From IMG/VR virus record IMGVR_UViG_3300046777_001575, positions 1-64,000 of that record: a stretch of DNA of 64,000 bases. The stretch is one strand, 5' to 3'. Position 1 is the first letter of the stretch, and the number at the start of each line of letters is the position of its first letter. Under the pieces are notes generated by a model that ran no database searches, was not told the origin of the DNA, and saw only the letters and a list, made by a program, of their open reading frames with translations. This stretch comes from a virus. Below are positions 17,671 to 61,159 of this stretch, piece after piece. The translations under genes were made by a program, and so were the position numbers.

Positions 17671-18308
17671 TATACTTCTTCCAAAGTTACAGAGACATTC
17701 CAGTAGTCAAACTTTGTTCCTCTTTTTTCAACTGAGTAATTAAAATTACTAATAAACATTTCTATTAGTTGATTATACTGTCTAAGACGATCATACGGGT
17801 CTGGCTGACCATTAAAAACATCTTTTTTGTCATACGCAAGAAAAACCCAGAAAGAGTCTTTATGATTTTCATACCACTCAAGCATATCTGCTCCACCTGC
17901 GCCACCATCTGTTGTATATGATGTATGTGGCGATATGCCAGTTTCTGCATTAAATGCTGGAATATTAGAATGAGATCTAGACGGAATCATATTCCAACTG
18001 GTACTAAGTTTTAATTTATCTGCAATATGATAGGATCTCATTCTTCCATTAATCATTCTTTCACGCTTTTCAATACGTTCATCTGAAAACTCTAATGGTG
18101 ATCTGTTGTCATCTGTTAAAATTAAAAACTGATTAATTAGTGTGTCGTCTGGTTCACCAGTTGTATCTGCACCAACTTCTAACCCATATGGAACATATAA
18201 CTTATTAATTATGGTGCCTGAATTTTCAGACCAAAGCATACCACTAGGTCTACTATATCTTTTTCTTCCTTGGATATAAGAGTACCTTGGATCAATTTCG
18301 TCTGCCAC
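17670..18308 (-). CDS. Distal tail-like minor tail protein
   Basis: Immediately after the tape measure; [21 protein letters not shown]. Confidence 0.65.
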
Positions 18309-21300
18309 TTATACCAATCCCCCTAATTCTTCTGTCTTCTGTTTGTCTAATTGTTGACATTACTGCCTGTGCAATCTCGTTTGGATTAGCATCTGTCTTT
18401 GCATTAACAGTTAATGTATATGTATTATTATACACTGCTCCCCCTGGGTTTTTACCACTATTCATTGCTCTGAGAGTATCAACACCATGTGTATCGACTG
18501 CATACTTACTCATTATAAATTCTCCTGGAGTTAACATTGCTGGGATAGTATCTGTTCCTCTTGCAAAACCACCACTAGCAAAATATTTAGGAGGTACTAT
18601 TCCACCCATGCTAAAACCAAATCTACCAAACACGCTCTTTAAAGCATTAGTTACTGTTGCAACAGGTTTTGTAACTATATTTTTTACTGCTGATGCAACA
18701 TTGGATACCCCAGTTGCAACTGCCTTGGCTACTGTAGAAACAGTACTTGCAACTGTTTTTACTACCGCAGTTGCTGGCTTTGTAACTGCTGCTACAACCT
18801 TTGCAATTGGCTGATTTACACCTAAATTCCACCCAACAGAAGGAACGGATGTTGTTTTTGTTAATGGGCTTCCACCAAGTGGATTAAATGTAGGGGTTGT
18901 TGTTGCTGTAGGCTTAGGAGTAGGTACTGGATTTGGTGTTGGATTTGGTGTTGGATTTGGTGTAGGGGTAGGATCTGGTGTAGGATCTGGCTTTGGTGTA
19001 GGGGTAGGGTCTGGCTTTGGTGTAGGGGTAGGGTCTGGGGTCGGAGTAGGCTCTGGTGTTGGTTCTGGTGTAGGCTCTGGTGTAGGGGTAGGCTCTGGTG
19101 TACCAGATGTTGCTCCAGTGATTGCATCATTGCCACTTGACTGTTGATTATTATATGCCTGTATTAATTTGTCTTGAGTATTTAAAGCAAGTTGCATTGA
19201 CTCTATAAACTGCTTACTTCTTACCATAGCAAGATCTACCTGATTTTTAATTGCTTCCCAAGCATCTCTTGTTTTTCCAAGAACAGTTAAATTTTCAATA
19301 TCAGTTTTTAATTGAATTTGTTTTAAACGAATAAATTCTTGAGCAGGTTCTATCTTCTTTTCTTCTAAATCAAATATCTCATTTTGCAAATCTTTAATAT
19401 CAGACTCAAGTTCTTTCCTAGTTCTATATGTTTTTGTAACTGGGTCATAGGCTTTTACTGAGTTGAGTTCATACTGTCTAGATTGCTCTAATGCTTCTCT
19501 CTGCTTTGTTACAGCATCAGCAGCCTGCTGTGCTCTCATTTCTTGTGCAGCCCTTGCCGCTGCTGCTATATCTCCAGATGTTAGAGCCTCAGCAAGTGTT
19601 AGTTGGCCTCTTTGCTGATTAGCAATAGCAGCATTAGCCTTTTCAACATCGTCTAGTGCTTTGATTCTTTCATCATATTTTTCATTAATTTTTTGCTCTT
19701 GATCTTCAATAGCCTTTAAGGATGCTTCCTTATCATCAATTTTATATTGAATTCCAGCAATAGTATTTTGTGCTTCCTCAATTATTTTATTGCTTTCTTT
19801 AGTGTCTAAATTAAACTTTATTTGAAGTGCAGTTTCTTCAACATCAAAGGCCTCCATAGCGTTACTAAATCCTTGATCAAACATGTCTTGCATAAACCCA
19901 ATAGTGCTCTTTAGTTGATTTAGTCTTTCATTAAAATCACTCACCATCTTATTTAGTTCATTTTGTGCAGCAATAATTTGTGCTCTATCTGCACCCTTAC
20001 TTATTAAACTGTTTATTCTTGATTGTTGAGCAGCAATAGCATTTTCCATTGATCTTAAGTTTTCATCAGAGCCAATTGCAAAAGCAGTTTCTGAACTGTA
20101 TTGTTGTCTAATTCTATTTTCTTGAACTCTATCTTTCTTAAATTGAGCAATGTCTGTTTTTATTCCTGAAACTGCTGCAGCCTTTTCTTGTGCAATAGTT
20201 AATGCTTTATATTTTGCTATAAGTGATTTTAAGGTTTTATCGTTAACCCCATTTGCAATTGCTGCTGCAATTGTTTTATCAGAAATTAATTCGTATGCAT
20301 TGGCAACTGGCACTCCAAGTTTAGACAACTTATCGAATGCAATAGTTTGATTTGATAATGCTTTAGACTCTTCTTCCATGCTAGAATTAAAATCTCCCAT
20401 GGTGATTGAATACAAAGCCTCTTGAATATTTTTAGCATCTCTTTTTAGTGCAATAATATTTCCCTTGTTGTCAAACTTAAACAAAGAATTTTTTCTCTTT
20501 TCATATTCTTTTGGATCCATGCCAACAATTAGTTCAATAAGGTCCTGACTTCCACCTAGTGCTCGAATATCATTTTCTATACCACTAAATACATTTATTG
20601 TCTTGCTGCCTCCAAATAATTTATCCAATGCCTTACGAGAAGCAGACCAGCCTTCTGTAACTTTGATTTGATTCATTCTTACATCTCTAAGTTTCTTTAC
20701 AAGGTCGTCAAGTGGAGAAGCCTCAACCTTGCTTCCTCCACCAGTATTGCCACCTGTTGGAGCATTTGTATTAACTTGAACATTATCAACAACAGCCTTG
20801 TTTCCTTGAGCCTCTATATATTTTTGTACAATATAGGATTTGCTTCCAGTAATACCAGCACCACCTCTTGGGCCAGTTTCTTTACGCCAAGCCTTGAAAT
20901 CTTCGCTTTCAAGTATCTGTGGTTCTGGAACATTAATTAATGTAGAGATAGTAGTTGTATAAACTTTTTGCTGATCTTCAGTTAGAGTATTGAAATATGC
21001 TTCATCAAATGCTGCAGTTCCCTTAACCTGTGGCATAATTTCATAAACAATTTTTGCTGTTAAATCTTTGCTTCCTTCAATGCTGTCAAGCATTTTGTTT
21101 AGTCTGTCGTATGCTTCTTTATTCTTTGGATCTATGTAATAACTTACCATTACATCTGATGGTATAACAGCATTAAGATTATTTAACTTAATTATATTTT
21201 TTGTAAAATCAAGAGCATCTGAGTCTTTTTCAAATGCTTCTACCTTAGTAATAAATTTTGTTTGTACTGTTTTATTGATTTTATTGTCTGCACCAAGAAT

Positions 21301-24300
21301 ATTTTGTGCTGCAACACCAATTGACTCAGAAGTTGCACCACTAAACTTTGTAATAATATTCATCATCTTTGGAGCAATATCTTTATTGTCTGTTGCTAAC
21401 TGAAGAAGGCTTCTAAACACTGCTGGAGGTATATCGCCACTTGCCATCTTTGCCTGAATCAAGAACTCTTGTCCACTATCAATAGCACCAGACTTTCTCA
21501 AATCTCCTGCTTGCTGATTAACAACATCAAGATAAGCCAATTGATTTGGATCATTCTTATATTTTGCAGTAGTAGCCTTTTTCATTCCAGACATCATTGC
21601 TTCTTGAAGTCCTCCAGCACTATTGTACTGGCTAACAATGTCTCCTTGCAATGCTGCTTGGGCACCTGTTAGTTTATCTCTTTCTTTGATATACCTGGTT
21701 TGCATTTCATTGGCTTCATTAATTTTACCCTGCAACTTTAACTCTTCAATTTTCTTTTGATAATACATATCAAATGAATCAAGCATTTGCTTGTTTTGCT
21801 CCATAGCAATTTTTGCATCAACTGCATATGCTGCTCCTAAAGTCCCTGCTTGTTTTGTAAATTTCTTTGATGCAAAATAGCCTCCGATAGCACCTGCTGC
21901 TGCACCAATTCCTCCACCAATTATTGCTCCAACAACGTTTCCAACTACTGGAACAGCGGTACCAATTGCTCCACCAATTGCTGCGCCTGCTGCTGCTCCT
22001 CCAAGAGCAGAAGCACCTATTCCAACCTTTTGCATTGTTTTTTGTCCAGCAAGTTTGGTTATAGGATTTGCATTTTGAATATTTGAGATACTGCTCTTCA
22101 TATTCTTAGAATTTTCTTGAATCATTTTCATTCTAATTTCAAGCGGCTTATCTAAAAGGTTTTCTCCATTAGGTCCTAGAAGACTTTCTAGTTGAGCAAT
22201 AACCTTAAGACCAATTGACATGTCTCCTGCTTGTCTTGCAGCATTCATTGCTAAACTCTTTGCCTGACCTATATCCATAGCACCTGACATAATTGCAGAA
22301 GATAACTGACTGCTCAAATCTTTTACTGCAACATTTCCCTTGCCTGCAGCATTTTGTTCAGCAATTCTCTTTGTTAATGCTTTACCTTCTGCAGTCTGAG
22401 TAAATGCTTCTCCATACGTTGTCTTTCCTGTTGCTGGACCAAGCATTGAAAAAGAGTTTTTGCGTCTCAGGTCCATTTGTTCAGATGCTGTTACTTTACC
22501 ACTAAACTTTGCTATTTCATTAATTGCAGAAGTTGTTCCTTTAAACTTTTCGCTTTCTTCCAATACCTTTTTCTGTGCTCCGTCAAATGCCATTCTTAGC
22601 GCAACAAAGGATCCAACTGTTGCTGCAAGACCAATTGCTAGTGCTGCTGCTGGACTCTTTAGCATTGGCAAAATCATTGACAATCCCATTAAAGGCATCA
22701 TAACCTTTTGTGATATTTCTCCAACTTTGCCTGGGGCCATAGATCCAATCATTGCTGCTCCAGAAGCAATTCCTACTGCTCCCCCAAGACCCATCCCTGG
22801 TCGTTTACCTGCATCAATTCTTGCTTGTCTTTTTGCTGCTCTATTTTCAGCAAACTTAGTTAATCTTCCCATTGGCGTTCTTGCTTTTGCTTCTGCTGCT
22901 GCTCTTGCATCAATAATTGATTGCTGGTATGCAACCTTTGCAGCCAACTTACTTCTTTTTTCTTCTAATGCTGCTTGTTTTCTTCTTCCCCGCATAACTG
23001 GATCAATTGGTCCAGTAGTTCCATACATAGCAGTTTTGTTTGCATTAATTCTTGCTTGTGTTCTTGCTTCTGCTCTTTGTCTTTTTTCAATTTGGCGACG
23101 TAAAGATTTTGCATCAGCATCTATTGGTCCTGTTCCATACAACAATGTTCTTGATGCTGCTGCTGCTGATTGAGAAAGAGTTGTTCCGATTGTACTACCA
23201 ACAGATCTTGCTTCTGCAATAGATCCTCTTGCTCCATCTATTAATGCTGTTGCTACTGTGCTCCTTGCTTCTGGTGCATCGGATTTTCCACGCAAGACCA
23301 TAGGCTTTTGACGAATTTTTGGCTCTGTTGATGCTGGGGCTAGTCTTGTATCCTTTGTACTTCCAGTAGATGACTTAACTCCAGCAGGCTTACTTGTTGT
23401 CTTTGGTTTTTTTGTTTTTCCAGTTTTTGGATCTTCTACTACTTCGTCTGGTTTAATTAAAATAGATGTATGAAGTTTGTGTATTTTTTTCCAATCAACC
23501 TTTTTACCTTCTCTAAGTCTATCGACCATTGCTTGATAATATGGTCTTTCTTCTGGACTAAGGTCCATAGTTGCTAGTGTTTTTTCTAGTTTAGGTAAAA
23601 CTCTATCAATTTCAGCATTCATTGCATTGTGATATTCTTGAGCAGTCATCCCCTTTGCAATATCTGCTGTTGCGTTTCCAAACCAGAATGGAGATTTTCC
23701 TGCTGCAGGGCCCTTAACACCACTCAGGTTTATTTTTGCCATCTCTTCCATTGAAGGAAGATTTTTTACAAAGTCTCTCTTGCCAGATGCTCTATCAAAT
23801 ACTCCTGCTGCTCCAACATCTGCAATAACATTTCCACCTAAGTTTCCAGCCTTTAGGTCTTTGTCTATTCTAAGGTTTGCTGCTACAAGTTGTCTAAAAT
23901 ACTGTTCTTTTGTAAAGTTCTTGCCCATCTTTGAAGAATCAAACCTTGCATCATATGGAGACTCTAATACAATTATCTTTCTCTTACCGCTTGGGTCTGT
24001 AGGATCAATCATTGTCCTTACAGTTTGTTTTGGAGCATCTAGTCCATGAACATCACGAGCAATTTGAGTTGCTCTTTGTTCTGCAAGTGCTCCCTTTTCA
24101 TCAAGCATAGGCTTAACAAATACTCTTGATCCATCTGGCTTTTCATATAGTCCACCTAGGCCACTAACAGGGAAACTGAATCCAGTAGTTGGAGAGATCT
24201 GTTTTCCAAAGTCTGTTGGAGATAACTTGCCAGACTTGGTTTTTGCTGCCTCTTTTGCAATATCCTTTAGTATCTTTACATTCTTTGCTTGGCTTGGGTT

Positions 24301-27240
24301 TGCTGCTCTTTTTGCTGCTTCATCACTTCTGCGCTTAGATTCTTCATCTTGGCTTATTGATACACGATGACCAGAGCCAAGTCTGTTCATATTTACAACA
24401 GTTCCATCATTAAGTGTAACAGTTGAAGATCCAGTCTTAACAGCCCCACTCTTTTTGCTTACTCTTTCTTCAATAGTAAATGATTTGATAAGTCCCTTTT
24501 CAACTGCATTACTAAGAATCTTTCTGCTTTCTTCTGGAGTTGTTCCAAGACCTTTTCCAAGCAAGAACTTTGTAGATGTTTGATACAACTTTTGAGCATC
24601 CCTATATACAGTGCTTGAAGCAATCTCTGGACGTTCTGCTGGAATTCTCTTTGTAAAAATGTCACGAACTAAATTATCATTTACTCCTTTTATCTTCCCA
24701 TCTGCAAAATCTTGTTTAATTATTTCAATTATTGCACGATCCATTGCCTCAACACTTGCTGCTGGAAGTCTAGAAGGGCTCCACTTTCCTGGACCAAGTT
24801 TTTCCCACTCGGCTATAAATATTTTTGGATCTACACCTGCACTAGAAGTCATAGACTTATTTAAGTGCTCTGGGAAAGTAAATGCAAGTTTATGAAGTGT
24901 GGCTGTTGTTGCTGGAAGACCCTGTGATTTTAAAATTGCTTCAAGTGCTCTAAGTTTACCCTTTTGATCATCAGACAGAAACGCATTATCTCTTATGATG
25001 TCAGAAATAAGTTTTTGTTCACTCTTTCCACCAACGTGTGTGATATTTGTTTTTGTTGCTACATCTACTCCAGTGCTTCCCTCATTAAATCCCTGTACTT
25101 TTCTACCTGCAACCAATTGTGCAATCATTGGTCTGTTTGCTGGATCTTGTGCTGATTTTGCTGGAATAACTGCTTCTCCAGGTGTAAGCATTGTTGGAAC
25201 AGAGTCGGTATTACCGCTTCCTGGAACTTGCGTAGTTCCTGTAGAATACTTCTTTAGTCCTGGACCCTTACCTCCACCTTTAACTGGACCCGTGAAGCCT
25301 ATTTGTGCTGCAATTGCTCTCTTATATGCTGATGCAAGTGAGTTAACTGCTGCTGCCTCAGAAGTAAATGTTTGTTGAAGTCTTTGATGTACTTGGTCAA
25401 GGGATGCAGCAACTGCTGATGCTTCTAACTGCTCTTTAGTTAGATAAGATGTTTGTTCTCCTAAAATCTTGCTTGTATTTCCAGTTTTGTTATACATTGA
25501 CTTCATGCTTGCAAAAAGTTTAATAATGTTTGCAGCAGCGTTTGCTATCAAACCAAATGTCATAAGGAGAACTGGACCAATTCCAGCAACTGCAACAGTT
25601 AAAATAGTAATAAACTTCTTTGTTCCATCTCCAAGGTTGTTAAACTTATCAAGAACTTTGCCAACAAACTCAACTATAGGGGTAAGTGCTTTTAAGAATT
25701 GTTCTCCTACTGGAGCAAGAGAAGTTTTAAGATCTTCCATAGATTTCTTAAACTTATATGTTGTTGTATTTTGAATCTTATCTAATTCTCGCTGTGACAA
25801 GATAGCAAGTTCTTCTGTAGTTGCCCTTGTTAGACCTAATACTCTTTGCGCTTGTGTACCTTGCGCTGTTACGTTCTGAAATAATGTAGATAGTCTTGAG
25901 AACTGGAACTTACCAAACAACTGTTCAATAGCACGAGCACGATTAAGTGGATCTAAGGTATCTAGTGCCTGTGCAAAACCAACAACAGTAGCCTTTATGT
26001 CTCCCTTATTTGCTTCAACAATGCCACGAATATTAACACCAAGATTTCCAAGCATCTTTGCTGCTTTATCAGATGGATTAATTAATGATGCAAGACCAGA
26101 CTTTAGTGCGTTAGCACCTTCTGATGCGTTGATTCCACCTTCCTTCATTGCTGTAAGGAAGAATGCCAAATCTTCTACATCTCCACCAAGTTGCTTAACA
26201 ACTGGACCAGCCTTTGGAATTGCAACTGTTAAGTCTTCAATTGATACAACAGTTTGGTTTTCAACTGCGTTAAGAAAGTCAATTTTCTTTGCAAGATCTG
26301 CTGAGGCAACACCAAACGCATTTGTTACCGATATTGTTGTTTCCAATGCCTGTGTTTGTTCAACTCCACCAAGAACTGCAAGCCTTGTTGCCTGTGCAAC
26401 CTGTGCAGTTAGTTCTGCCCCCATCTTACCCATTGCTGCTGCATCTGCAGCCATCTTCATGGTGTCTTCAACTGCAACTCCATACTTGGTATATTCTTTA
26501 GCAAGAGTTTGAATCTGCTTTATCATTGCATCTGTTTCTTCTTGCGTTGTAAACATTTCTCCGTATACACGCTTGAATCTGATTGCTTGCTCTTCAAGTT
26601 GCATAAATGTCTTTGAAGCCTGTGCTCCAAGCATTGCCAATGGGACTGTGAAACCAACCATCAACTGACGGCCAGCCCACTGTGTATTCTTACCAAAATT
26701 TAGAAGATTTGTGGATCCTTGTTTTAATAGTTGATTAAGGAGTTGCTGTCTCTGTGCTGCGATTGCTGTTTGAGTGCCTAGATTCTTCATATCTAGGGTA
26801 AGAGGTCTTACAGCGATTGCCTCTAATGCACCATTTGCACCACGACCCAGTTTAATATACTGTGTCTGAATATCTTTTACACGCTCTCGTGCAACCTTGT
26901 TTATTGTTTCAAACTCAGACCTAAATAGTCTTCCAAAGGTTTTTGTGGCTGCTCCAGTGTATCTAAAATATTCTCTGGATGTTAACTTGTTACGTTCTAA
27001 CGCATCAGTAAAATGCTCTGTGCTTGTTGTTACTTGTCGCATAGATGCCTGGAATTGTCCAGTAGCATTTATTGCGTTCATCAAGTTTTTTGCTTGATTT
27101 GCTGATACTGCTGCTGCTGCAGTACCAGACTTTGCCATTTGTGTATGGAAGGCTGATATTTGACGTTGTAGAAGTTTTAGACTTGCTAAAGCATCCGACG
27201 TATCAATATTTACATTAATATTGGATTGAATATCAGCCAT
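18292..27240 (-). CDS. Tape measure protein (2982 aa) with internal kinase-like domain and Pro/Thr tract
   Basis: Very long Ala/Lys/Gln-rich helical ORF following the tail chaperones; tape-measure core near the N-terminus; Gly-rich hydrophobic segments. Confidence 0.93.
18900..19102 (-). repeat. Pro/Thr tandem tract ([14 protein letters not shown]) in tape measure
   Basis: Degenerate repeats such as ggtgtaggggta and ggtgttggattt on the + strand. Confidence 0.9.
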
Positions 27241-52890: not shown

Positions 52891-52920
52891 TTGACTTTTG
52901 GCCAAAATTTGTGTTATACT
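52891..52920 (+). promoter_or_regulatory. Sigma70-type promoter
   Basis: TTGACT-18 bp-TATACT with extended TG, upstream of the + strand lytic transglycosylase gene. Confidence 0.75.
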
Positions 52921-52967
52921 TGGTAGTAACACCTACCAAGGTGTTATTGTTTTCTAAGGAGGAAACT

Positions 52968-53531
52968 ATGATTAAATTTATCGAAAGAAACAAAGAGATC
53001 ATTAGCACACTCAGTATCGTGGTATTAGTTAGTGTTTTTTCAAATTCTGCTAATGCTTCTGTAGATCTTGATACTAAAAACAATCTTAGCCTGGAACAGG
53101 CTCAGACTGAAAAGACTACCTCGAAAGAGGTTTTTTTGGTTTCTAAGGCCAAAAAGTTGGAGAGTTTTGAAAACAAGACATCTCTTACAGACCTAGAACT
53201 AAAAGAACTGCTTTCTCTGGTTGGCTTCAAGGGTAGAGACCTTGTTGTTGCCTGGGCAGTAGCAAAAAAGGAGTCTAATGGTAGACCATTGGCATTCAAT
53301 GGAAACCACAAGACTGGAGATTCATCCTACGGGATGTTTCAAATTAATATGATAGACAACCTTGGTCCTGACCGTAGAACCAAGTTTGATCTTGATTCAA
53401 ATGCTGAGTTATTTAACCCCGTGAAGAATGCAGAGATTGCATACTACATGACAAACGGTGGAGAAGACTGGTCTTCTTGGAAGGGTATAACCCCTAAGAC
53501 CAAGTACTGGATGACTAAATTTCCTAATTAG
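52968..53531 (+). CDS. Secreted/anchored lysozyme-like lytic transglycosylase
   Basis: GGAGG RBS then MIKF; N-terminal signal/TM; AVAKKESNG (catalytic Glu), SYGMFQIN, NAEIA, WSSW. Confidence 0.8.
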   Translation: MIKFIERNKEIISTLSIVVLVSVFSNSANASVDLDTKNNLSLEQAQTEKTTSKEVFLVSKAKKLESFENKTSLTDLELKELLSLVGFKGRDLVVAWAVAKKESNGRPLAFNGNHKTGDSSYGMFQINMIDNLGPDRRTKFDLDSNAELFNPVKNAEIAYYMTNGGEDWSSWKGITPKTKYWMTKFPN

Positions 53532-53540
53532 TATATAAAA

Positions 53541-53578
53541 ATAAATTACCCCCTAGAGAAATCTGGGGGGTTTATTTA
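53541..53578. terminator. Bidirectional terminator between convergent genes
   Basis: AAATTA-CCCCCTAGA-GAAA-TCTGGGGGG-TTTATTT. Confidence 0.8.
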
Positions 53579-54528
53579 TCTCTTCTTGGTGGCATTCCAT
53601 ATCCACGATTTTCTATAACAACATGAGAAGAATAGTTAGGAATAAAAGTTAAATATTTTTTAGAAAGTCCAGTAAGTTCACAAAACTGCTGGACTTTTTC
53701 TTTTGGTATATCTAGCATACCTGACATTAATAAGGACAGCCTATCTGTTGATTCTTGCACATGGCTCCAATAAACTTCTTTTCTATCATCTGCCCATGGA
53801 CGTAATGTTTCTCTTGTAACGGTTCCATTTGGCTGCTTATGAGACTCATGGTGAAAAACATCTCTAGTTCCTATTGAATATATTTCCCAATTTGCTGCAA
53901 AAGTTCTTAATGATAAACAGATTTCCTCGGTATTAAAAGATTCTTTTTTTGATATTCCAACCTCGTCAACCCATTTTTTGGGAGCAAAAAGATAACAACA
54001 GGTTGCCCAATATGACCTTACTATTTCATTATTTTTTAAAACACTATACCCTGGAAAACTAAAACCAGGAATAAACTCATTATAGTGGGAGGCATATTTT
54101 GAAAAAGTATCAACACCAAAATCAACTGAATTATCCGACATAAGTTCATAATTTGCTGGAGCATAAGCAATTATAATATTTTTACCTAAAGAGTTTATTT
54201 CTTTATATCTAGTACAAGCCAAATCATCCCATCCAAAAGACGCATAGGTATGAGAATCAAACTGTATAAAAAAATCATACTCCAGGTCAATCTGTATTGC
54301 TAAATTTCTAGCCCAACCAAGTCCACCTCTATATTTAGAAATATCATAATGCAAATACCTAATTTGATTTGAAGGTATAAAAGAAAAATCAAAAGTTTCA
54401 GAATCTTCAGAAACTAAAGAGAAAAACAATCTATCTTTATATTTGGCCTCCTGCCACAGTGATTTGATTGTTGTATAAAATTCTGGATCACAATAATTAA
54501 CAACACTAATTAATATTTTTTCGTTCAT
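53572..54528 (-). CDS. GT60-like glycosyltransferase (Skp1-hydroxyproline GlcNAc-transferase-like)
   Basis: ILISVVNYCDPE..TTIKSL...A....RLFF, RGGLGWARNLA, FFIQFDSH...GWD, EE..LSLRTFAANWEIY, FH match the Gnt1/PF11397-type pattern. Confidence 0.8.
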   Translation of the reverse strand: MNEKILISVVNYCDPEFYTTIKSLWQEAKYKDRLFFSLVSEDSETFDFSFIPSNQIRYLHYDISKYRGGLGWARNLAIQIDLEYDFFIQFDSHTYASFGWDDLACTRYKEINSLGKNIIIAYAPANYELMSDNSVDFGVDTFSKYASHYNEFIPGFSFPGYSVLKNNEIVRSYWATCCYLFAPKKWVDEVGISKKESFNTEEICLSLRTFAANWEIYSIGTRDVFHHESHKQPNGTVTRETLRPWADDRKEVYWSHVQESTDRLSLLMSGMLDIPKEKVQQFCELTGLSKKYLTFIPNYSSHVVIENRGYGMPPRRDK

Positions 54529-55064
54529 TTTTTCTTTCTTATGTGTGTCTCTAGATATTCTGGTCCCTCAACAAAATACCAATGATCTGGTTCTGCAAAA
54601 TGAAAAAAAACCATAGCAACATTATTGTTGCTTGGATTTGGAAAATCTTCTCTCCAGTGTTCTTGATCATTTCCATAATAAGCCAACGCTTGATTTGGCT
54701 TTAAAGAATATGGAACGCCCTCAACAAAAAGGGGCCAGATTTCTTTTTGATATACACATAAGTCTAAAGTATATGTGCAAGCGTTATCATCCTTGTGTCT
54801 ATACAGACTAGCATCTGGGCCTTCATAGTGTGCAAACAACGAGTATGTTGGTAATAAGTTTTCGCTTTTAAAAATTTTTCTAGCAATAGGAACCAGTTTA
54901 ATTGATATTTCTTTTAAAATTGGCAAAGATTTTTCAGAAGCAATATACCTAGAAAACCCATTCTGATATTCAAGACTTTTTGGATCAGGAATAGAACTTA
55001 TTAAATTATCGTAATCTATTTGATTTAAAACATTCTCTATGAGAATAGGATTTTGAATATTCAT
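54525..55064 (-). CDS. 2OG-Fe(II) oxygenase-like protein
   Basis: LYRHKDDNAC...WPLFVE...YYGNDQEHWRE...VFFHF. Confidence 0.75.
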   Translation of the reverse strand: MNIQNPILIENVLNQIDYDNLISSIPDPKSLEYQNGFSRYIASEKSLPILKEISIKLVPIARKIFKSENLLPTYSLFAHYEGPDASLYRHKDDNACTYTLDLCVYQKEIWPLFVEGVPYSLKPNQALAYYGNDQEHWREDFPNPSNNNVAMVFFHFAEPDHWYFVEGPEYLETHIRKKK

Positions 55065-55645
55065 TTAATCCAACTTGCTACAGCATATCTTGTTCCATCA
55101 GTAACTTCTGAAACTGAATGATTATATACATATGTTGATGGGAAAATTATCATTTCATTTGCTTTTGGTTTATATGATATCTCAAATCTTGGAAAGTTTA
55201 TTTCTCCACCAGTATAATTATCGTTTAAATAGTAAACACTAGAAAGTCTTCTATGGTATTGTGGATGATCATCTATATGATTTGTAAAATATTGACCCTT
55301 TCCATATTTTAGAAGTTGATAATTGTCGTGATCAGAAAAATAAACTCCGTAACTAGCCATATATTCTTTTTCTGCAACAACCAAAGTGTTATAAAATAGG
55401 TTAGCAATATTTTTCTGAAATGCATCTACAAGTGTTGAATACTCTTCATCTATACCATTAATAAACGGAACAGATATAGAACTTGTGTTTCTTACTTTTG
55501 TATCTACCCCGCCAATAACTGTTGCAGAAAACCACTCAATACCAGAAGATGTCATTCCTTCTTCTATATCGTTCACTAAATTTTCATGACCATCAATTAG
55601 ATCAGAATAAACAACTATGCCTGGAGCAATTTCTTTTTTTACCAT
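55061..55645 (-). CDS. Prolyl 4-hydroxylase-like 2OG-Fe(II) oxygenase
   Basis: QLLKYGKGQYFTNHID, RRLSSVYYLNDNYTGGEINF, IIFPS, HSVSEVTDGTRYAVASW. Confidence 0.85.
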   Translation of the reverse strand: MVKKEIAPGIVVYSDLIDGHENLVNDIEEGMTSSGIEWFSATVIGGVDTKVRNTSSISVPFINGIDEEYSTLVDAFQKNIANLFYNTLVVAEKEYMASYGVYFSDHDNYQLLKYGKGQYFTNHIDDHPQYHRRLSSVYYLNDNYTGGEINFPRFEISYKPKANEMIIFPSTYVYNHSVSEVTDGTRYAVASWIK

Positions 55646-55885
55646 TTACCATTTCCCTATCGGACAAAAAGCCTTTTCAAGTTTTGTTTTTGCTTTCATA
55701 AAACAACCACACTTTTTACATTGTGTTGTTAGTTTTATTAACTCTGGGCAACTTTTGCAAAGACTATATCTTTCTGCTGCTTTTTCTTCACTTGCCCATT
55801 CAGTGTTTGGATTAACAAGATCCCAGGGACGAACCTGTCTCTGTTCATTGTTTTGTTTACTTTTATACTCTTCCCATTTATTCAT
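55646..55885 (-). CDS. Small Cys-rich protein (CxxC..CxxCGC..C)
   Basis: RYSLCKSCPEL...QCKKCGCFMKAKTKL...CPIGKW. Confidence 0.7.
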   Translation of the reverse strand: MNKWEEYKSKQNNEQRQVRPWDLVNPNTEWASEEKAAERYSLCKSCPELIKLTTQCKKCGCFMKAKTKLEKAFCPIGKW

Positions 55886-56271
55886 TCGTATTGCCCTGGT
55901 AGTTTAAATGTATCATCTAAGAACTTCCATCCTACTGTAACAATTCTTCCATACTCATGACCATCGTCAACATTGATAGCCTTTGCATCTGAAAGCAAGA
56001 TAGAGTATAACATTTCATCACATAAAATTGTTTCTACAACTTCATTGTTTTTAATAATATTTACTGTATATGAACCAGTTTGTTCGTCAATGCTATTTTC
56101 TGTAAAACTATCTGCAGAATAAAGCATTGCTCCAATATTAGAATCAACAACATCAATATGAACAACTTCATCACCAACAACATATGCTATAGCCATTCCT
56201 GCAATATTGTTTGCTAATTTATTTTGTTTGTCTTCTGCTGTTACCCATTTAACATCCTTATAATTAATCAC
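55882..56271 (-). CDS. Hypothetical protein, first gene of the tailoring operon
   Basis: GTG start with AAGGAG RBS; ATGA-coupled to the next gene. Confidence 0.6.
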   Translation of the reverse strand: MINYKDVKWVTAEDKQNKLANNIAGMAIAYVVGDEVVHIDVVDSNIGAMLYSADSFTENSIDEQTGSYTVNIIKNNEVVETILCDEMLYSILLSDAKAINVDDGHEYGRIVTVGWKFLDDTFKLPGQYE

Positions 56272-56297
56272 AAATATCTCCTTATTTCTCTAATAAT

Positions 56298-56326
56298 ATT
56301 CTATCATAAAAAGACTCTACTGTCAA
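56298..56326 (-). promoter_or_regulatory. Near-consensus sigma70-type promoter for the oxygenase/GT operon
   Basis: Minus strand TTGACA-17 bp-TAGAAT with TG extension. Confidence 0.8.
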
Positions 56327-56328
56327 AA

Positions 56329-59300
56329 CTAGCACGAGGATAGGCTTCCAAGCGGATCACATGCTCCTGGATACATGCAGTATGGAGAAGGAAGGTTGGC
56401 GTAGTCAGACTGGCTACATGTACGATTTGAACTTGCTGGTGGAGTTGGGGTAGGAGCAGGTGGTGTTGGTGTAGGAGCATAATCTCCCTGACAAATATTT
56501 GGACATGATCCTGGAGTTATACACCATGTTCCATTGCCATAGGTTCCACATGCACCACCATAACTTACGCAAGTATTGCAGTCAGCAGTTGGTGTTGGAG
56601 CAGTTGGTGTTGGTGCAGTTGGTGTTGGAGAACAGTTTGTAGACTGGCAAGCAGGGAAGTCCCCAGTTGTGTATATACATTGACGTGAGTAGCCAGTACC
56701 AGAACCAGAATTATCATATCCTGGAGTTGTATATGAACAGTTTCCTGTTCCACCGCACTGATAACTTTCAGTACACTTCCACTGTGCAGTTACTGCAGTT
56801 GGTGTTGGAGCAGTTGGTGTTGGTGTTGTAGGAACACAACCATTAGTTTGATCTATATTTGGACAAGAACCTGGAGTTACACATGTTCTATAATATTCTG
56901 AACCAGAAGGGCATCCAGAATTTGGTCTTGTTGCATATGATCCATCAGCATATGGAGAATAAGTATTACATGTGTTACAGTCAACTGTTGGAGTTGGGGC
57001 AGTTGGAGTTGGGGCAGTTGGAGTTGGGGTAGATCCACACAAAGACTGAGCATTGGCCAATGCAGTTTGATAATTTGTGGTTACTCCTGATTCAGTACAT
57101 CCTGTTGCACTTTGATATTCTGCTCTAGCAGTATTGCTATTTGGACCATCAATTACTTCTGGGAGACCATTACAGCATCCATAAGCATAATAGAATGTTT
57201 GAGTTGGTGTTGGGGCAGTTGGGGTTGGGGCAGTTGGGGTTGGTGTTTGAGAATATTGATATACAGTTATTCCAGCATTAAGACCACAAATATCTGTTGT
57301 TCCTCCAGCAGGACTCTGAGAAGCAACAGTTCCATTATTTTGTTGAGTTGCACCAACTGTTGTATAATCTAAGTATTCAAATAACCATCCAGAAGCAACA
57401 ATTGCATTTCCTGCAGCAGATTCTGTCATTCCTACAACATTAGGTAATGTACAATTTGCAGGTGGTGTTGGGGTAGGAGCAGGTGGTGTTGGTGTTGGAG
57501 CAGGTGGTGTTGGGGTAGGTGTAGAAGAACATCCTGTTGGTGCAGGTCTTGCAGATACTATTGAGCAATCAATCTTTGTCGCTCCTATTCCACTAAGCAA
57601 GTTTGTGTATACTGAACAAGCCTCATTTATATTTGTTGTCAAAACATTGTTTGCATCAACTGTGTATGATTCTGAATATGGCTGACCGTCAAGGCAATAT
57701 GCAAGATAAACTGTTCCAGGGTTTACAACTGGAACTGATGGGCATCCGCCACCATATCCAAGAAGAGCAACTATTTGCTCACTAGTTAACGATGGATTTG
57801 TTGTTGTTCCAACAACTACAGTTGAACTTGCTGTCGCTGTTCCATATGCTCCACCTCGGCTACCAACGATTACTGGATCGCAATAAGTATAAATGTTATA
57901 TGTTCCTGGGGTTGGTGTTGGTGTTGGGGCTGGATCATTTATACAAGAAACACCCAAACTGGTATACAATGGAGAAGATGCTGTTCCCTGTACACATGTA
58001 AAGTTAGTTGCTCCATTTTGACTTAAACTATTTCCAATTCCAGTACATGCTTCATTTACTGATGTATATCCACCATAAGATATGTCCATACCAGAGTATC
58101 CGTTTATGTATCCACTGCTATCACAATATGCATAGGTTATGTAGATTGGTCCTGATGTTGGTGTTGGTGTTGGTGCTGGAGTTGGTGTTGGGGAAGCACC
58201 AGGAGTTGCAGCAAATGTTATTGATCCTGTAGAACTTTGATATCCAGCACGGGATGCAGTTATATATACTGTATAAGATTGGTTTGGTGTTAGACCGCTA
58301 ATATTAAATTCTTCTGGAAATTCTTGATTCTGTGTTCCTAAAGAAGAAGAATAAGAGTTACTATAGTCGTGATTGGTTATAGTAACATTTGCATAAACGG
58401 AACTAGGATAAACATTCCATCCTGTTGTATATGTAAGTGTTGGCGTTGGAAGCGTTGGCAATGTTGGTGTAGGTGTAGGGGCAGGTGGTGTAGGTGTAGG
58501 GGCAGGTGGTGTAGGTGTAGGGGCAGGTGGTGTAGGTGTAGGGGCAGGTGGTGTTGGTGTAGGGGCAGGTGGTGTAGGTGTAGGGGCAGGTGGTGTTGGT
58601 GTAGGAGCAGTTGGTGTAGGAGCAGTCGGTGTTGGTGTTGGGCTTACTATGTTAAGTAAATTTCCAAAAAAAAACCATGTATCTGAGCCTATCTTTGAAA
58701 GAGTTCCTTTTGAGTACTGACCATCCAAAGAACGAACATTTGATTTGCTATTAAGAAATACCGAAGAATCTTCTTCAGTAATTGTCGTAAGTGCTGTACC
58801 TATTTGAATTATGTCAACAGAATAACCTACAGGAATTTGTACTGAAGAATTTTTTGGAAGAGTTAGAGTGTTTGGAGTAGAAGTAGATAGAAGAATAGTT
58901 TTTCCAATATCTTCTGCAGAGAGTGTAAAACTTTCTGTTTTTGTTATTACTGTTCCAGTGTTTGCAAGTGCTGGATCCAAGTCAAATCTTAAATCTACAG
59001 AATTCCAATCAATACCATTTCCAGCAAGATCTGAGTATGCTGATGTTGCTCCATTAATACCATTAGTAACTGCTGTATCAACATATGCTTTTGTTGCTAG
59101 ATTTGCAGTGTTAGCAATACCATGAACATCTGTAGTCTTTGCGCTATGTGTTGCATCTGCATCTACAAGATTTTGAAGGTGTTTTGCAATAGATGGGTTT
59201 ACTAGGTTTGCAGGATTTACATTTGCGCCATCATAGGCATATGATCCATAGTGATAAAGCCGTAGGGCTGCCTGAATATCTGCAGCATCTGAAAGACCAG

Positions 59301-59361
59301 GCACTTTGGTAGGGAAAAGCCCAGTGCCATTGACGGTATTATCAATATTTTCTGCTGCCAC
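56329..59361 (-). CDS. Pro/Thr-rich, Cys-rich fibre-like virion protein with PASTA domain (1010 aa)
   Basis: Fibre anchor shared with 47244-48941; PTPTPPA linkers; FN3-like domain; PASTA (LPNVVGMTESAA...GTVASQSPAGG); many Cys modules. Confidence 0.8.
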   Translation of the reverse strand: MAAENIDNTVNGTGLFPTKVPGLSDAADIQAALRLYHYGSYAYDGANVNPANLVNPSIAKHLQNLVDADATHSAKTTDVHGIANTANLATKAYVDTAVTNGINGATSAYSDLAGNGIDWNSVDLRFDLDPALANTGTVITKTESFTLSAEDIGKTILLSTSTPNTLTLPKNSSVQIPVGYSVDIIQIGTALTTITEEDSSVFLNSKSNVRSLDGQYSKGTLSKIGSDTWFFFGNLLNIVSPTPTPTAPTPTAPTPTPPAPTPTPPAPTPTPPAPTPTPPAPTPTPPAPTPTPPAPTPTPTLPTLPTPTLTYTTGWNVYPSSVYANVTITNHDYSNSYSSSLGTQNQEFPEEFNISGLTPNQSYTVYITASRAGYQSSTGSITFAATPGASPTPTPAPTPTPTSGPIYITYAYCDSSGYINGYSGMDISYGGYTSVNEACTGIGNSLSQNGATNFTCVQGTASSPLYTSLGVSCINDPAPTPTPTPGTYNIYTYCDPVIVGSRGGAYGTATASSTVVVGTTTNPSLTSEQIVALLGYGGGCPSVPVVNPGTVYLAYCLDGQPYSESYTVDANNVLTTNINEACSVYTNLLSGIGATKIDCSIVSARPAPTGCSSTPTPTPPAPTPTPPAPTPTPPANCTLPNVVGMTESAAGNAIVASGWLFEYLDYTTVGATQQNNGTVASQSPAGGTTDICGLNAGITVYQYSQTPTPTAPTPTAPTPTQTFYYAYGCCNGLPEVIDGPNSNTARAEYQSATGCTESGVTTNYQTALANAQSLCGSTPTPTAPTPTAPTPTVDCNTCNTYSPYADGSYATRPNSGCPSGSEYYRTCVTPGSCPNIDQTNGCVPTTPTPTAPTPTAVTAQWKCTESYQCGGTGNCSYTTPGYDNSGSGTGYSRQCIYTTGDFPACQSTNCSPTPTAPTPTAPTPTADCNTCVSYGGACGTYGNGTWCITPGSCPNICQGDYAPTPTPPAPTPTPPASSNRTCSQSDYANLPSPYCMYPGACDPLGSLSSC
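58441..58642 (-). repeat. (PTPTPPA)n tract with 21-bp tandem units
   Basis: Tandem ggtgtaggtgtaggggcaggt units on the + strand. Confidence 0.95.
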
Positions 59362-60427: not shown

Positions 60428-61159
60428 TTATACCACGCTGACGTATACAGAATTGAAAATTACTGATGCATCAAAGTCTGTTCTTATCTGGGGGACGGCA
60501 CCATTTCCCCACATGTCTTTATCCTCTATAAAGATTTGCTGAGTAATAGAAAGTATATAAGTTCCTTGATATTTAAATGACCCTATTAACTGAACAAATT
60601 CTTTATCTTTGCTTGGAAAATAGGTTCTTATCCAAACCTCTGTATTTGATGTATGGGTGGTTAGTTCAAAGTTATAGGTTACAAATACCTGAGATCCTTC
60701 TTTTATACCGTGAAAGTTTAAAGCCCTTTGATTACTATTCCAGAGACTTGTACATTCCGCAGGAAGATATGTTTCATTTTGTCTTTTTCCTTTAGTATCA
60801 AGAATAAGAGTTACCCACCCATCATCTCCTTGAGTAATACCCAACTTTATTGGTTTATCGAGCATATTAGTATATGATGCCCAGCCAGCCTGCTGACCAG
60901 CGGAAGATAAAGAACTTAATCCATCTTTTCCAGAAGGTCCTTGAGGACCTCTTGGCCCCTGCTTACCCTCTGGGCCTGGTTCTCCCTGCTTACCATCTTT
61001 TCCATCTCTGCCTGCAGGTCCTTGAGGCCCAACTGGTCCAGGAACTGGGAGGAAAGATAATGTATTTTCCGATGAAACACTAGTTTTATTTTGCTCAACT
61101 TGTGCAGCATAAGATGTTTTTTTTGCGCTAGGAAAATCCATGGATTTAGAAACTGCCAT
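60428..61159 (-). CDS. Collagen-like (Gly-X-Y) fibre protein
   Basis: PGPVGPQGPAGRDGKDGKQGEPGPEGKQGPRGPQGPSGKDG. Confidence 0.8.
   Translation of the reverse strand: MAVSKSMDFPSAKKTSYAAQVEQNKTSVSSENTLSFLPVPGPVGPQGPAGRDGKDGKQGEPGPEGKQGPRGPQGPSGKDGLSSLSSAGQQAGWASYTNMLDKPIKLGITQGDDGWVTLILDTKGKRQNETYLPAECTSLWNSNQRALNFHGIKEGSQVFVTYNFELTTHTSNTEVWIRTYFPSKDKEFVQLIGSFKYQGTYILSITQQIFIEDKDMWGNGAVPQIRTDFDASVIFNSVYVSVV

Follow-up and report, generated by a model that had tools for sequence, protein, structure and literature searches.

A lake phage of actinobacteria very probably decorates its own fibre with enzymes of a swappable tailoring cassette

Introduction

Does a bacteriophage modify its own fibre with protein-modifying enzymes of a eukaryotic type and, if so, on which residues? 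The question is raised by a locus in IMG/VR record IMGVR_UViG_3300046777_001575, of which positions 1 to 64,000 were analysed (the window, 64,000 nucleotides); the source is an abundant, uncultured phage of actinobacteria, from a lake. An earlier note on this DNA had proposed that a proline-rich fibre is hydroxylated and then given GlcNAc on hydroxyproline, after the Skp1 pathway of Dictyostelium and Toxoplasma, where the prolyl 4-hydroxylase PhyA is followed by Gnt1, a member of CAZy family GT60 (PMC6939170). The enzyme identities, their physical and evolutionary linkage to a linker-rich fibre and the idea of self-modification with eukaryote-type enzymes are supported, whereas the sequential route is less well supported. 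New here is the comparative result, missed in the earlier note: the GT60-type gene is only one interchangeable allele of the locus.

Organization of the locus

The fibre gene and the five-gene operon that directly follows it lie where they had been placed, with all genes on the minus strand. In order after the fibre, the operon encodes an unknown protein, a six-cysteine protein, a PF13640 enzyme, a second 2OG oxygenase and a PF11397 transferase. The features are as follows.

60428..61159, minus strand: collagen-like (Gly-X-Y) structural protein, seen in translation; context only
56329..59361, minus strand: beads-on-a-string fibre protein, 1010 aa, presumed substrate (ORF, phrog_16053, PASTA)
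56298..56326, minus strand: promoter-like site, TTGACA-17-TAGAAT with TG, 11/12 matches (consensus scan, pattern match only)
55882..56271, minus strand: unknown protein, 129 aa, first gene of the operon (ORF)
55646..55885, minus strand: small six-Cys protein, CxxC-x9-CxxCxC-x12-C, DUF6171-like (PF19668, phrog_13558)
55061..55645, minus strand: prolyl-4-hydroxylase-type 2OG-Fe(II) oxygenase, 194 aa (PF13640, 2.6e-19)
54525..55064, minus strand: second 2OG-oxygenase-fold protein, 179 aa, unclassified family (AF2 fold, conserved HxD...H)
53572..54528, minus strand: PF11397/GT60-type polypeptide glycosyltransferase, 318 aa, last gene of the operon (PF11397, AF2 fold)
53548..53571, no strand assigned: GC-rich hairpin, likely a two-way terminator (terminator scan)
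52911..53531, plus strand: conserved SLT-type lysozyme gene (PF18896, 6.3e-16)

Three junctions in the operon are 4-bp start/stop overlaps, including that between the glycosyltransferase (GT) and 179-aa oxygenase genes, and one is a direct adjacency. The promoter-like site sits in the 57-bp gap separating the fibre gene from the operon, while the hairpin separates the convergent GT and lysozyme genes and forms the downstream edge of the cassette. An operon with its own promoter-like site and terminator would, as far as pattern scans go, count for a tailoring unit. The lysozyme gene, relatives of which are carried by at least 594 viral contigs, marks the constant right-hand border of the variable cassette. 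The arrangement is not due to chance: dozens of related viral contigs share this gene order, the GT being as little as 43% identical. The 129-aa protein has no match in Pfam, PHROG or NCBIfam; its orthologues are confined to three related loci (L019, L020 and L073), and unrelated small ORFs fill its position in relatives.

The fibre and its linkers

In profile searches the fibre matches phrog_16053 (tail fiber, 3.5e-7) and PASTA (2e-5). An N-terminal fibre-attachment part without cysteine is followed by linkers set between small Cys-rich modules and one PASTA domain, and the cysteine count is even in each of the modules between linkers. The nine Pro/Thr linkers, which confirm the described Pro-rich fibre, comprise 184 residues in all (86 P, 65 T, 26 A and 7 S), are of PTPTPPA/PTPTA type with PTP and TPT as the commonest tripeptides, and correspond to tandem repeats of 15 and 21 bp in the DNA. 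The linker map holds no SPPPP within the window for the Ser-Pro(3-5) extensin motif, and the analogy to extensins drawn earlier fails at the motif level because Ser-Pro4 repeats are absent there.

The glycosyltransferase

The GT60-like identity proposed for the GT is supported by PF11397 (59.6 bits against a cut-off of 21, 4.7e-16), a family carried by all 119 full-length homologues found; the GT60-type assignment is defined by this Pfam threshold and by fold. The predicted structure, a GT-A fold (AF2, pLDDT 91.3), has GT27 polypeptide GalNAc transferases as its closest solved folds (Foldseek E 3e-10), with a VIA Z of 19.5 to mGalNAc-T1 (260 residues, rmsd 3.4) and 19.1 to TgGalNAc-T3; the next family, SpsA, reaches 17.0. 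The GT carries the YCDPE, ARNLA and QFDSH motifs, and these are conserved in an alignment of 38 homologues, where D91-x-H93 and H230 are invariant, matching the DxH metal motif and distal histidine. The enzyme is a single domain lacking a C-terminal ricin-type lectin domain, the feature that parts GT60 from GT27 (PMC8724618). Enzymes of GT60, a family related to GT27, transfer alpha-GlcNAc to polypeptides (PMC8724618), and they include both Thr-specific mucin-type enzymes and the hydroxyproline-specific Gnt1 (PMC6939170; PMC8724618). The nearest non-phage relatives of the window-type GT are giant proteins that combine four PF11397 domains, two PF13640-type domains and a peroxiredoxin in one chain.

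The oxygenases and the six-cysteine protein

The P4H-like identity of the 194-aa enzyme is likewise supported (PF13640, 70.4 bits against a cut-off of 27). In the family alignment H123-x-D125 and H176 are invariant; ten positions past H176 the consensus has R as the basic residue, outside the columns conserved at 90% or more. Every PDB match listed for the family profile is a prolyl hydroxylase or PKHD-type hydroxylase; they include Bacillus anthracis P4H (1.5e-9), PBCV-1 vCPH (4.9e-7), PHD2 (3e-6) and Dictyostelium PhyA (1.1e-5).

The 179-aa protein, also described earlier as a 2OG oxygenase, adopts the expected double-stranded beta-helix fold (AF2, pLDDT 93.4), with H90-x-D92, H136 and R138 invariant among homologues. 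Its family is unclassified, since no sequence match was found in Pfam, NCBIfam or the PDB. PBCV-1 vCPH (PDB 5c5t) is the best Foldseek match (4.6e-7), narrowly ahead of many other 2OG oxygenases, and VIA Z scores are 16.4 to 6n1f (rmsd 2.5, 159 aligned), about 15 to PHD2 and 14.3 to vCPH. Because these fold matches are tied across several families, the protein is not assignable to the prolyl hydroxylases.

The small protein matches phrog_13558 (1.3e-13) and scores 26.1 bits against PF19668 (cut-off 27), a family to which the homologous N-terminal module of a fusion in locus L071 scores 27.9 bits. All six cysteines are invariant in the alignment. The protein is nearly universal in the cassette, and in other phages its module is fused N-terminally to PF11397 transferases (P0114/L071 and L074).

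Variation of the cassette among related phages

The stretch from fibre to lysozyme is a mosaic, hypervariable tailoring cassette. The nearest relative, L073, carries the same fibre and oxygenases, with the window-type GT (GT60a) replaced by another GT-like gene and an NAD-dependent sugar epimerase; the flanks of this swap are 96% and 86% identical, and homology to the window stops at 53531 and restarts at 54555. Alleles elsewhere include GT61, O-FucT-like and two further PF11397 subtypes, epimerases, a nucleotidyltransferase, a methyltransferase and a radical-SAM enzyme.

A linker-rich protein homologous to the fibre lies directly upstream of the cassette in all related loci with at least about 3.9 kb of upstream DNA except L071, where a protein with poly-Thr/Ser linkers, overlooked by the Pro-based pattern, lies just upstream. 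In a sample of loci anchored on the lysozyme gene, a recognisable GT was found in 26 of 29 cassettes with linker-rich fibres, and a GT or oxygenase in none of the four with linker-free fibres. For the association of linkers with GTs the hypergeometric probability is about 9e-4, a value that ignores relatedness among loci that are not phylogenetically independent and come in many cases from one lake time series.

The anticipated co-occurrence of a P4H, a GT60 enzyme and a Pro-rich fibre held for the linker fibre and GT but not for the P4H, an optional member. The PF13640 gene is absent from cassettes that keep a GT at L003-L018, L021-L027, L039 and L044-L047, many of which also retain the fibre and the second oxygenase. 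Apart from L006, all GT60a cassettes with sufficient upstream DNA have this second oxygenase next to the GT, and in nearly all cases the two genes are translationally coupled. Four loci have PF11397 subtypes without a local oxygenase (L071, L074, L080 and L112). Cassettes of this kind belong to phages with 4-10 PF13640 paralogues elsewhere or to incomplete contigs, so that they may still depend on an oxygenase.

The linkers vary as well, with PTPTPPA, AVTP, (PT)n and poly-T motifs among relatives. Threonine is found in the linkers of every linker-bearing fibre of the lysozyme-anchored sample, at 16-52% of linker residues, and linker proline drops to 10-12% in the poly-Thr types (L080 and L142). 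At L080 and L071 a PF11397 enzyme accompanies poly-Thr, Pro-poor linkers without a local oxygenase. Across the same sample, the presence of an oxygenase bears no relation to linker proline content. At the distant loci L053-L069 the linkers are PAPAPAP or poly-Pro and poor in threonine, and the P4H, the second oxygenase and the GT are all present.

What the cassette modifies

Because related phages exchange these enzymes as cassettes, self-decoration of the fibre is very probable, whichever residue is the acceptor. That the phage glycosylates the fibre linkers is likely. From the observed gene identities, folds, linkage and swapping we infer a substrate, donor sugar, acceptor residue and benefit, in a fuller account that we offer tentatively, as falling a little short of probable. 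On this account the five genes make up a late tailoring operon whose products would chemically modify the Pro/Thr linkers of the fibre protein encoded just upstream, acting in the cytoplasm of the host as virions are assembled or earlier. The PF11397 enzyme, a putative soluble relative of mucin-type polypeptide HexNAc transferases without their lectin domain, would attach its sugar, which is probably GlcNAc, through an O-linkage mainly at linker threonines. In parallel, the two 2OG oxygenases may hydroxylate linker prolines as an optional decoration, with hydroxyproline as a possible further sugar acceptor, and the six-Cys protein is probably a partner or targeting module of the transferase. 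The predicted product is a glycan-shielded, stiffened, protease-resistant linker, and the enzyme set as a whole would represent one allele at a recombination hot spot through which phages living side by side come to carry different glycans.

A strict hydroxyproline route, in which prolines of the PTPTPPA linkers are converted to 4-hydroxyproline by one or both oxygenases and then receive GlcNAc from the GT60-type enzyme, as happens on Skp1 through PhyA and Gnt1, is on balance rather unlikely. Gnt1 is itself a cytoplasmic, hydroxyproline-specific GT60 member (PMC6939170), and phage assembly is cytoplasmic too. The overlap and persistent adjacency of the GT60a and 179-aa oxygenase genes, together with the giant PF11397-PF13640 proteins, fit a hydroxylation-dependent acceptor better than threonine, and these natural fusions keep the route alive. 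The hydroxylase matches of the P4H-like family and the Pro-dominated, Thr-poor linkers at L053-L069 point the same way. However, an obligatory pairing of GT and prolyl 4-hydroxylase, as in a Skp1-type pathway, was not found: the PF13640 gene is frequently missing, the second oxygenase has ties to several families, and PF11397 subtypes occur beside poly-Thr linkers and without local oxygenases. Linker proline does not track the oxygenases, and Ser or Thr is the acceptor for the majority of GT60 and GT27 enzymes that have been characterised (PMC8724618; PMC3769586).

We regard it as improbable that the enzymes modify another phage protein, such as the collagen-like protein (as a P4H target) or capsid and tail-tube proteins. 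The collagen-like gene is found three genes upstream of that for the fibre, the P4H-like family has as its best PDB match the B. anthracis P4H, deposited as a procollagen-proline dioxygenase, and mycobacteriophage glycosylation reportedly targets capsid and tail-tube proteins. Yet the collagen-like gene is kept with or without a P4H gene or GT, even in the cassette-less L103, and cassette presence follows linkers in the adjacent fibre.

Action on the host, whether on an envelope glycan or on a protein such as a translation factor, as an aid to takeover or a block to superinfection, is quite improbable. GT-plus-epimerase sets of phages often alter surface glycans of the host, EF-Tu can be a hydroxylation target of bacterial P4H homologues, the second oxygenase has among its fold matches the solved P4H-EF-Tu complex of Pseudomonas putida (4iw3), and many further PF13640 paralogues lie outside the structural region of these phages. 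Against this reading, the operon sits inside the tail-fibre block, after the fibre gene in all relatives, all its proteins appear soluble, the GT fold is of the polypeptide type, and the cassette co-varies with fibre linkers.

DNA hypermodification, by a TET/JBP-like dioxygenase making a hydroxymethyl base for a GT to glycosylate, has precedent in DNA-modifying phage pairs of 2OG dioxygenase and GT (bioRxiv 10.1101/2023.12.21.572611) but is very unlikely here, given that the 78-kb record lacks a C5-cytosine methyltransferase (PF00145), the GT is a PF11397 enzyme with a polypeptide-GalNAc-transferase-like fold, its alternative alleles include the protein O-GT families GT61 and O-FucT-like, and the locus lies in the fibre module.

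Comparison with known systems

The proposed self-decoration of the fibre linkers has partial parallels. Like the Skp1 pathway, the phage pairs a soluble P4H-type oxygenase with a PF11397/GT60-type transferase, here encoded together and presumably cytoplasmic. Unlike that pathway, which modifies a single proline, the proposal involves no Skp1; linkage suggests as presumed target a repetitive linker of the virion, with candidate sites in the hundreds, relatives can do without the P4H gene, and the module adds an unclassified second oxygenase and the six-Cys protein.

GT60/GT27 mucin-type initiation (Trypanosoma cruzi and Dictyostelium GT60) is similar in that the phage GT fold is nearest to GalNAc-T1, GalNAc-T2 and TgGalNAc-T3, the DxH and distal His motifs are shared with GT60 without a ricin-type lectin domain (PMC8724618), and substrate regions are rich in Thr and Pro (PMC3769586). 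Unlike the Golgi enzymes, the phage-encoded GT would work in the bacterial cytoplasm, and its gene is coupled to oxygenase genes and can be exchanged for genes of unrelated GT families.

A virus-encoded P4H is also found in chlorovirus PBCV-1, whose vCPH, thought to act on Pro-rich viral repeats, is the best Foldseek match of the 179-aa oxygenase and ranks second for the P4H-like family profile. PBCV-1, unlike the phage here, is a eukaryotic virus, and its P4H is not known to share an operon with either a GT60 gene or a defined fibre gene.

Mycobacteriophage virions, according to a citing article, are glycosylated by phage-encoded GTs (Freeman et al., 2023, reference 80 in PMC12582341). The likeness lies in an actinobacterial phage with GTs encoded near structural genes; in mycobacteriophages the glycans are on virion proteins. 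Those enzymes reportedly belong to other GT families and modify the C-termini of the capsid and tail-tube proteins. We know of no hydroxylases, PT-linker fibre or hypervariable cassette described for mycobacteriophage glycosylation.

Secreted actinobacterial proteins such as Cellulomonas cellulases, from the same phylum as the host, also have PT linkers between small modules. These are mannosylated during secretion by a membrane enzyme (Pmt, GT39), unlike the phage linkers, for which a soluble enzyme of an unrelated family is proposed to act in the cytoplasm. Glycosylation shields such secreted linkers from proteolysis, and the O-glycosylated PT linkers of actinobacterial cellulases serve as a model for the shielded, stiffened and protease-resistant linker predicted for the fibre.

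The fibre protein and its operon

The presumed substrate is a tail-fibre-like protein, followed on the same strand by five genes that encode an unknown protein, a six-Cys protein, a P4H-like oxygenase, a second oxygenase of 179 aa and a glycosyltransferase.

56329-59361, minus strand: fibre gene, with a 1010-aa product
53548-53571: hairpin that ends the operon and faces the convergent SLT lysozyme gene

Residues 1-239 of the fibre resemble the N-termini of adjacent tail-fibre proteins (phrog tail fiber match). Beyond residue 239, nine Pro/Thr linkers totaling 184 residues (86 P, 65 T, 26 A, 7 S) separate small modules, each with 2, 4 or 6 Cys, and there is one PASTA domain. The 57-bp gap between the fibre gene and the operon holds a strong candidate promoter-like site, and the operon genes overlap by 4 bp at three junctions and abut directly at the fourth.

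The IMG/VR viral contig measures 78.5 kb, of which the window covers 64 kb, and its completeness is estimated at 72%. Its portal protein shares 47% identity with portals of large Streptomyces siphophages, and a complete relative (the record behind locus L096) is 118.8 kb with direct terminal repeats. The structural region also contains a 2982-aa open reading frame (18292-27240 (-)). Searching isolated phages with the region (megablast) gave no match, and tblastn with the transferase recovered Xanthomonas phage XacN1 alone, at 21% identity. A scan of 185,579 cellular genomes with motifs of the phage family found no relative, although these motifs are narrow and more distant cellular homologues could therefore escape. 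Among metagenomic viruses the module is abundant, with at least 130 transferase clusters, and the phage group itself numbers at least 594 contigs.

Identity of the enzymes

The earlier note assigned a GT60-like transferase, a P4H-like 2OG-Fe(II) oxygenase and a second 2OG oxygenase, and family and structure searches bear out all three. The transferase scores 59.6 bits against PF11397 (cut-off 21), and residues D91-x-H93 and H230 are invariant across 38 homologues. Its AlphaFold model (pLDDT 91) is predicted to be closest in fold to mucin-type polypeptide GalNAc transferases, with Foldseek E-values of about 3e-10 to GalNAc-T2, T1, T10, T12 and TgGalNAc-T3, and VIA-align Z-scores of 19.5 and 19.1, the next family lying two units lower. 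GT60 enzymes are polypeptide α-GlcNAc transferases, related to GT27 and without the lectin domain; among them are Gnt1, which is specific for Hyp, and mucin-type enzymes specific for Thr (PMC6939170, PMC8724618, PMC3769586). By profile, the nearest non-phage relatives are giant metagenomic proteins (P0122-P0125, 1641-2461 aa) with four PF11397 domains together with PF13640 and PF13661 oxygenase domains; two of the four also contain an AhpC/TSA peroxiredoxin.

The 194-aa P4H-like protein belongs to PF13640 with an intact HxD...H triad, and every PDB match listed for its family profile is a prolyl or PKHD-type hydroxylase. NCBIfam gave only a sub-threshold PiuC-like match, and the designer PPR proteins that headed the phmmer matches were rejected as an artefact of a short N-terminal repeat. 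The 179-aa protein has no family match by sequence, and PDB sequence searches with it or with the transferase, as single sequence or profile, returned nothing useful. Its model is confidently predicted to adopt a 2OG oxygenase fold, with H90, D92 and H136 invariant. The structural neighbors of this model are tied over several families of oxygenases, and the fold therefore does not indicate the protein's substrate. Prolyl-hydroxylase-like PF13640 paralogues also occur in arrays of 6-10 per phage genome (loci L068:3668-9670 and L048:5186-10118, and the records behind L074, L112 and L096); in L068 and L048 a PF11397 gene stands immediately upstream of the array.

The remaining small protein (79 aa) is DUF6171-like with six invariant Cys. 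There are hints in the sequences that this module may be related to the Cys-rich beads of the fibre, or may target the transferase to them. The six-Cys module is also fused N-terminally to PF11397 transferases (L074:9669-10856 (-), L071:8749-9957 (+) and P0114). Three transferase-bearing cassettes lack the six-Cys gene; the fibres are Cys-free in two (L096, L125), with L006 as the exception.

A mosaic cassette linked to linker-rich fibres

By profile search, the window-type transferase is found in 69 viral loci, almost always with the six-Cys and 179-aa oxygenase genes ahead of it. The earlier note proposed a check on whether P4H, GT60 and a Pro-rich fibre occur together, and they do so in part: wherever at least about 3.9 kb of upstream DNA is present, the next protein upstream is rich in linkers and usually in Cys (L071 excepted when a Pro-based pattern is used), but the PF13640 gene accompanies only about half of the 69 loci, and some linkers are poly-Thr. 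The Pro-based pattern is blind to (AVTP)n and poly-Thr, and L071 has a protein with poly-Thr/Ser linkers just upstream of its fusion gene. Distant loci (L051-L069) carry an extra 242-aa gene between the second oxygenase and six-Cys genes (L053:7996-8724 (+)), with a weak DUF6065 match (E 0.0045).

A second search was anchored on the conserved lysozyme gene, giving a sample not selected for the transferase (the best 80 of at least 594 relatives). In these loci the stretch between fibre and lysozyme genes is hypervariable. The nearest relative, L073, is 96% identical to the window DNA through the end of the lysozyme gene and again 86-93% identical from the 179-aa oxygenase gene onward, and in place of the GT60 gene it has a different glycosyltransferase-like gene and an NAD-dependent sugar epimerase/dehydratase. 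Other alleles include two more PF11397 subtypes (one of which carries the six-Cys module as a fusion), a cupin-bearing GT61, HtrL/YibB, a weakly matching O-FucT-like protein, epimerases, a nucleotidyltransferase, a methyltransferase and a radical-SAM/SPASM enzyme.

Linkers in this survey were called with a composition-based detector. Among the 33 complete cassettes, which are related to each other, come in many cases from the same lakes, and were classed by our own ORF calls and phmmer with representative queries (Pfam checks on the representatives), 26 of the 29 with linker-rich fibres contain a recognizable transferase, while all four with linker-free fibres carry neither transferase nor oxygenase. 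This association is our strongest evidence that the cassette works for the linkers of the fibre and that its role is glycosylation, and we consider it probable that the linkers are what it decorates.

Which residue carries the sugar

Our preferred reading, to which we give slightly less than even credence, is that the sugar goes mainly onto Thr and that prolines are hydroxylated as a second decoration in parallel. The two linkages differ chemically, as alkaline beta-elimination frees sugar from Thr whereas sugar on Hyp withstands alkali (PMC6939170). Most characterized GT60 and GT27 enzymes act on Ser/Thr (PMC8724618, PMC3769586), and the alternative cassette transferases, as members of Ser/Thr O-glycosylation families, are counted for Thr. 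Every linker-bearing fibre surveyed has Thr in its linkers (16-52% of linker residues; motifs include PTPTPPA, AVTP, (PT)n and poly-T), and Pro drops to 10-12% in the poly-Thr types. PF11397 genes adjoin such Pro-poor linkers in L080, L142 and L071, and have no local oxygenase in L071, L074, L080 and L112. The argument that the transferase works without an oxygenase is weakened because some genomes whose cassettes lack one carry 4-10 PF13640 paralogues elsewhere, and the other such contigs are incomplete.

A strict route like that of PhyA and Gnt1, with GlcNAc added to Hyp after prolyl hydroxylation, is in our view rather unlikely, even though translational coupling ties the window-type transferase to the 179-aa oxygenase, the GT60 precedent from the cytoplasm acts specifically on Hyp (PMC6939170), PAPAP or poly-Pro linkers occur at some of the distant loci, and the nearest non-phage relatives fuse PF11397 with PF13640-type domains and, in two cases, peroxiredoxin. 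Set against these points, about half of the transferase loci lack a PF13640 gene. Among these related loci, oxygenase presence showed no association with linker Pro content or PP dipeptides.

Other possible targets

That the cassette acts on host molecules seems improbable, as this leaves its co-variation with the fibre linkers unexplained. The collagen-like Gly-X-Y structural protein (60428-61159 (-)) is a poor correlate as enzyme target because it is conserved whatever the cassette. It is kept throughout the phage group, and some relatives have a second, longer collagen-like gene beside the first (L112:15762-16775 (-)). DNA hypermodification by the operon is very unlikely, with no PF00145 in the 78-kb record and a transferase predicted to fold like polypeptide GalNAc transferases.

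Novelty and meaning

Viral P4H is already known from PBCV-1. To our knowledge, virion glycosylation has been found in only a few cultured actinophages, and we know of no demonstration of prolyl hydroxylation of any phage protein. Virion glycosylation as such is already known from mycobacteriophages (cited as ref. 80 in PMC12582341). Full-text literature searches for PF11397/GT60 or P4H cassettes in phages turned up nothing beyond a list of viral auxiliary genes that names GT60. New here are the clean cassette swap, the range of transferase families, and the tie between linker presence and cassette presence. The cassette finding is well supported by sequence comparison, and the mechanism is proposed.

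More tentatively, the fibre of abundant freshwater actinophages might be a glycoprotein resembling mucin or extensin, made in the cytoplasm of the bacterium by a recombining "glyco-tailoring island" (eukaryote-type protein O-glycosyltransferases of the GT60, GT61 and O-FucT-like families with prolyl hydroxylases, sugar-nucleotide and radical-SAM enzymes). Hyp- and Thr-linked linker glycans would then differ from one co-existing phage to another, as a surface in an arms race. If so, the island would be to these viruses what O-antigen loci are to bacteria, and the protist GT60/P4H pairing could have had its evolutionary reservoir there. From the mosaic nature of the cassette, the glycans of the fibre may be under diversifying selection in lakes, which would change how dominant freshwater phages are understood in their host range, the stability of their particles and their decay. 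The module is compact, well defined and very common, and its repeat peptide, two oxygenases and single transferase form a set that is directly testable. Its enzymes could serve as tools for modifying recombinant repeat proteins in the bacterial cytoplasm, by O-glycosylation or by proline hydroxylation.

Variation among fibres and cassettes

In some homologues of the fibre, aromatic linkers built of FTFTPV or FFPPAF repeats replace or accompany the Pro/Thr linkers (L102:10119-11849 (-), L074:10920-12695 (-)); L102 has the six-Cys gene alone, with no transferase. The richest cassette (L098:7356-13198 (-)) combines P4H, the second oxygenase, PF11397 subtype b, a second glycosyltransferase-like gene, a methyltransferase and two epimerases, which suggests that it could assemble a multi-sugar, methylated glycan; its fibre has 341 linker residues in 845 aa. 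In other fibre-tailoring cassettes (L080:11374-12378 (-), L081 and L109), a radical-SAM/SPASM enzyme is encoded beside the six-Cys gene, which suggests that the Cys-rich modules of the fibre may be cross-linked in a RiPP-like manner.
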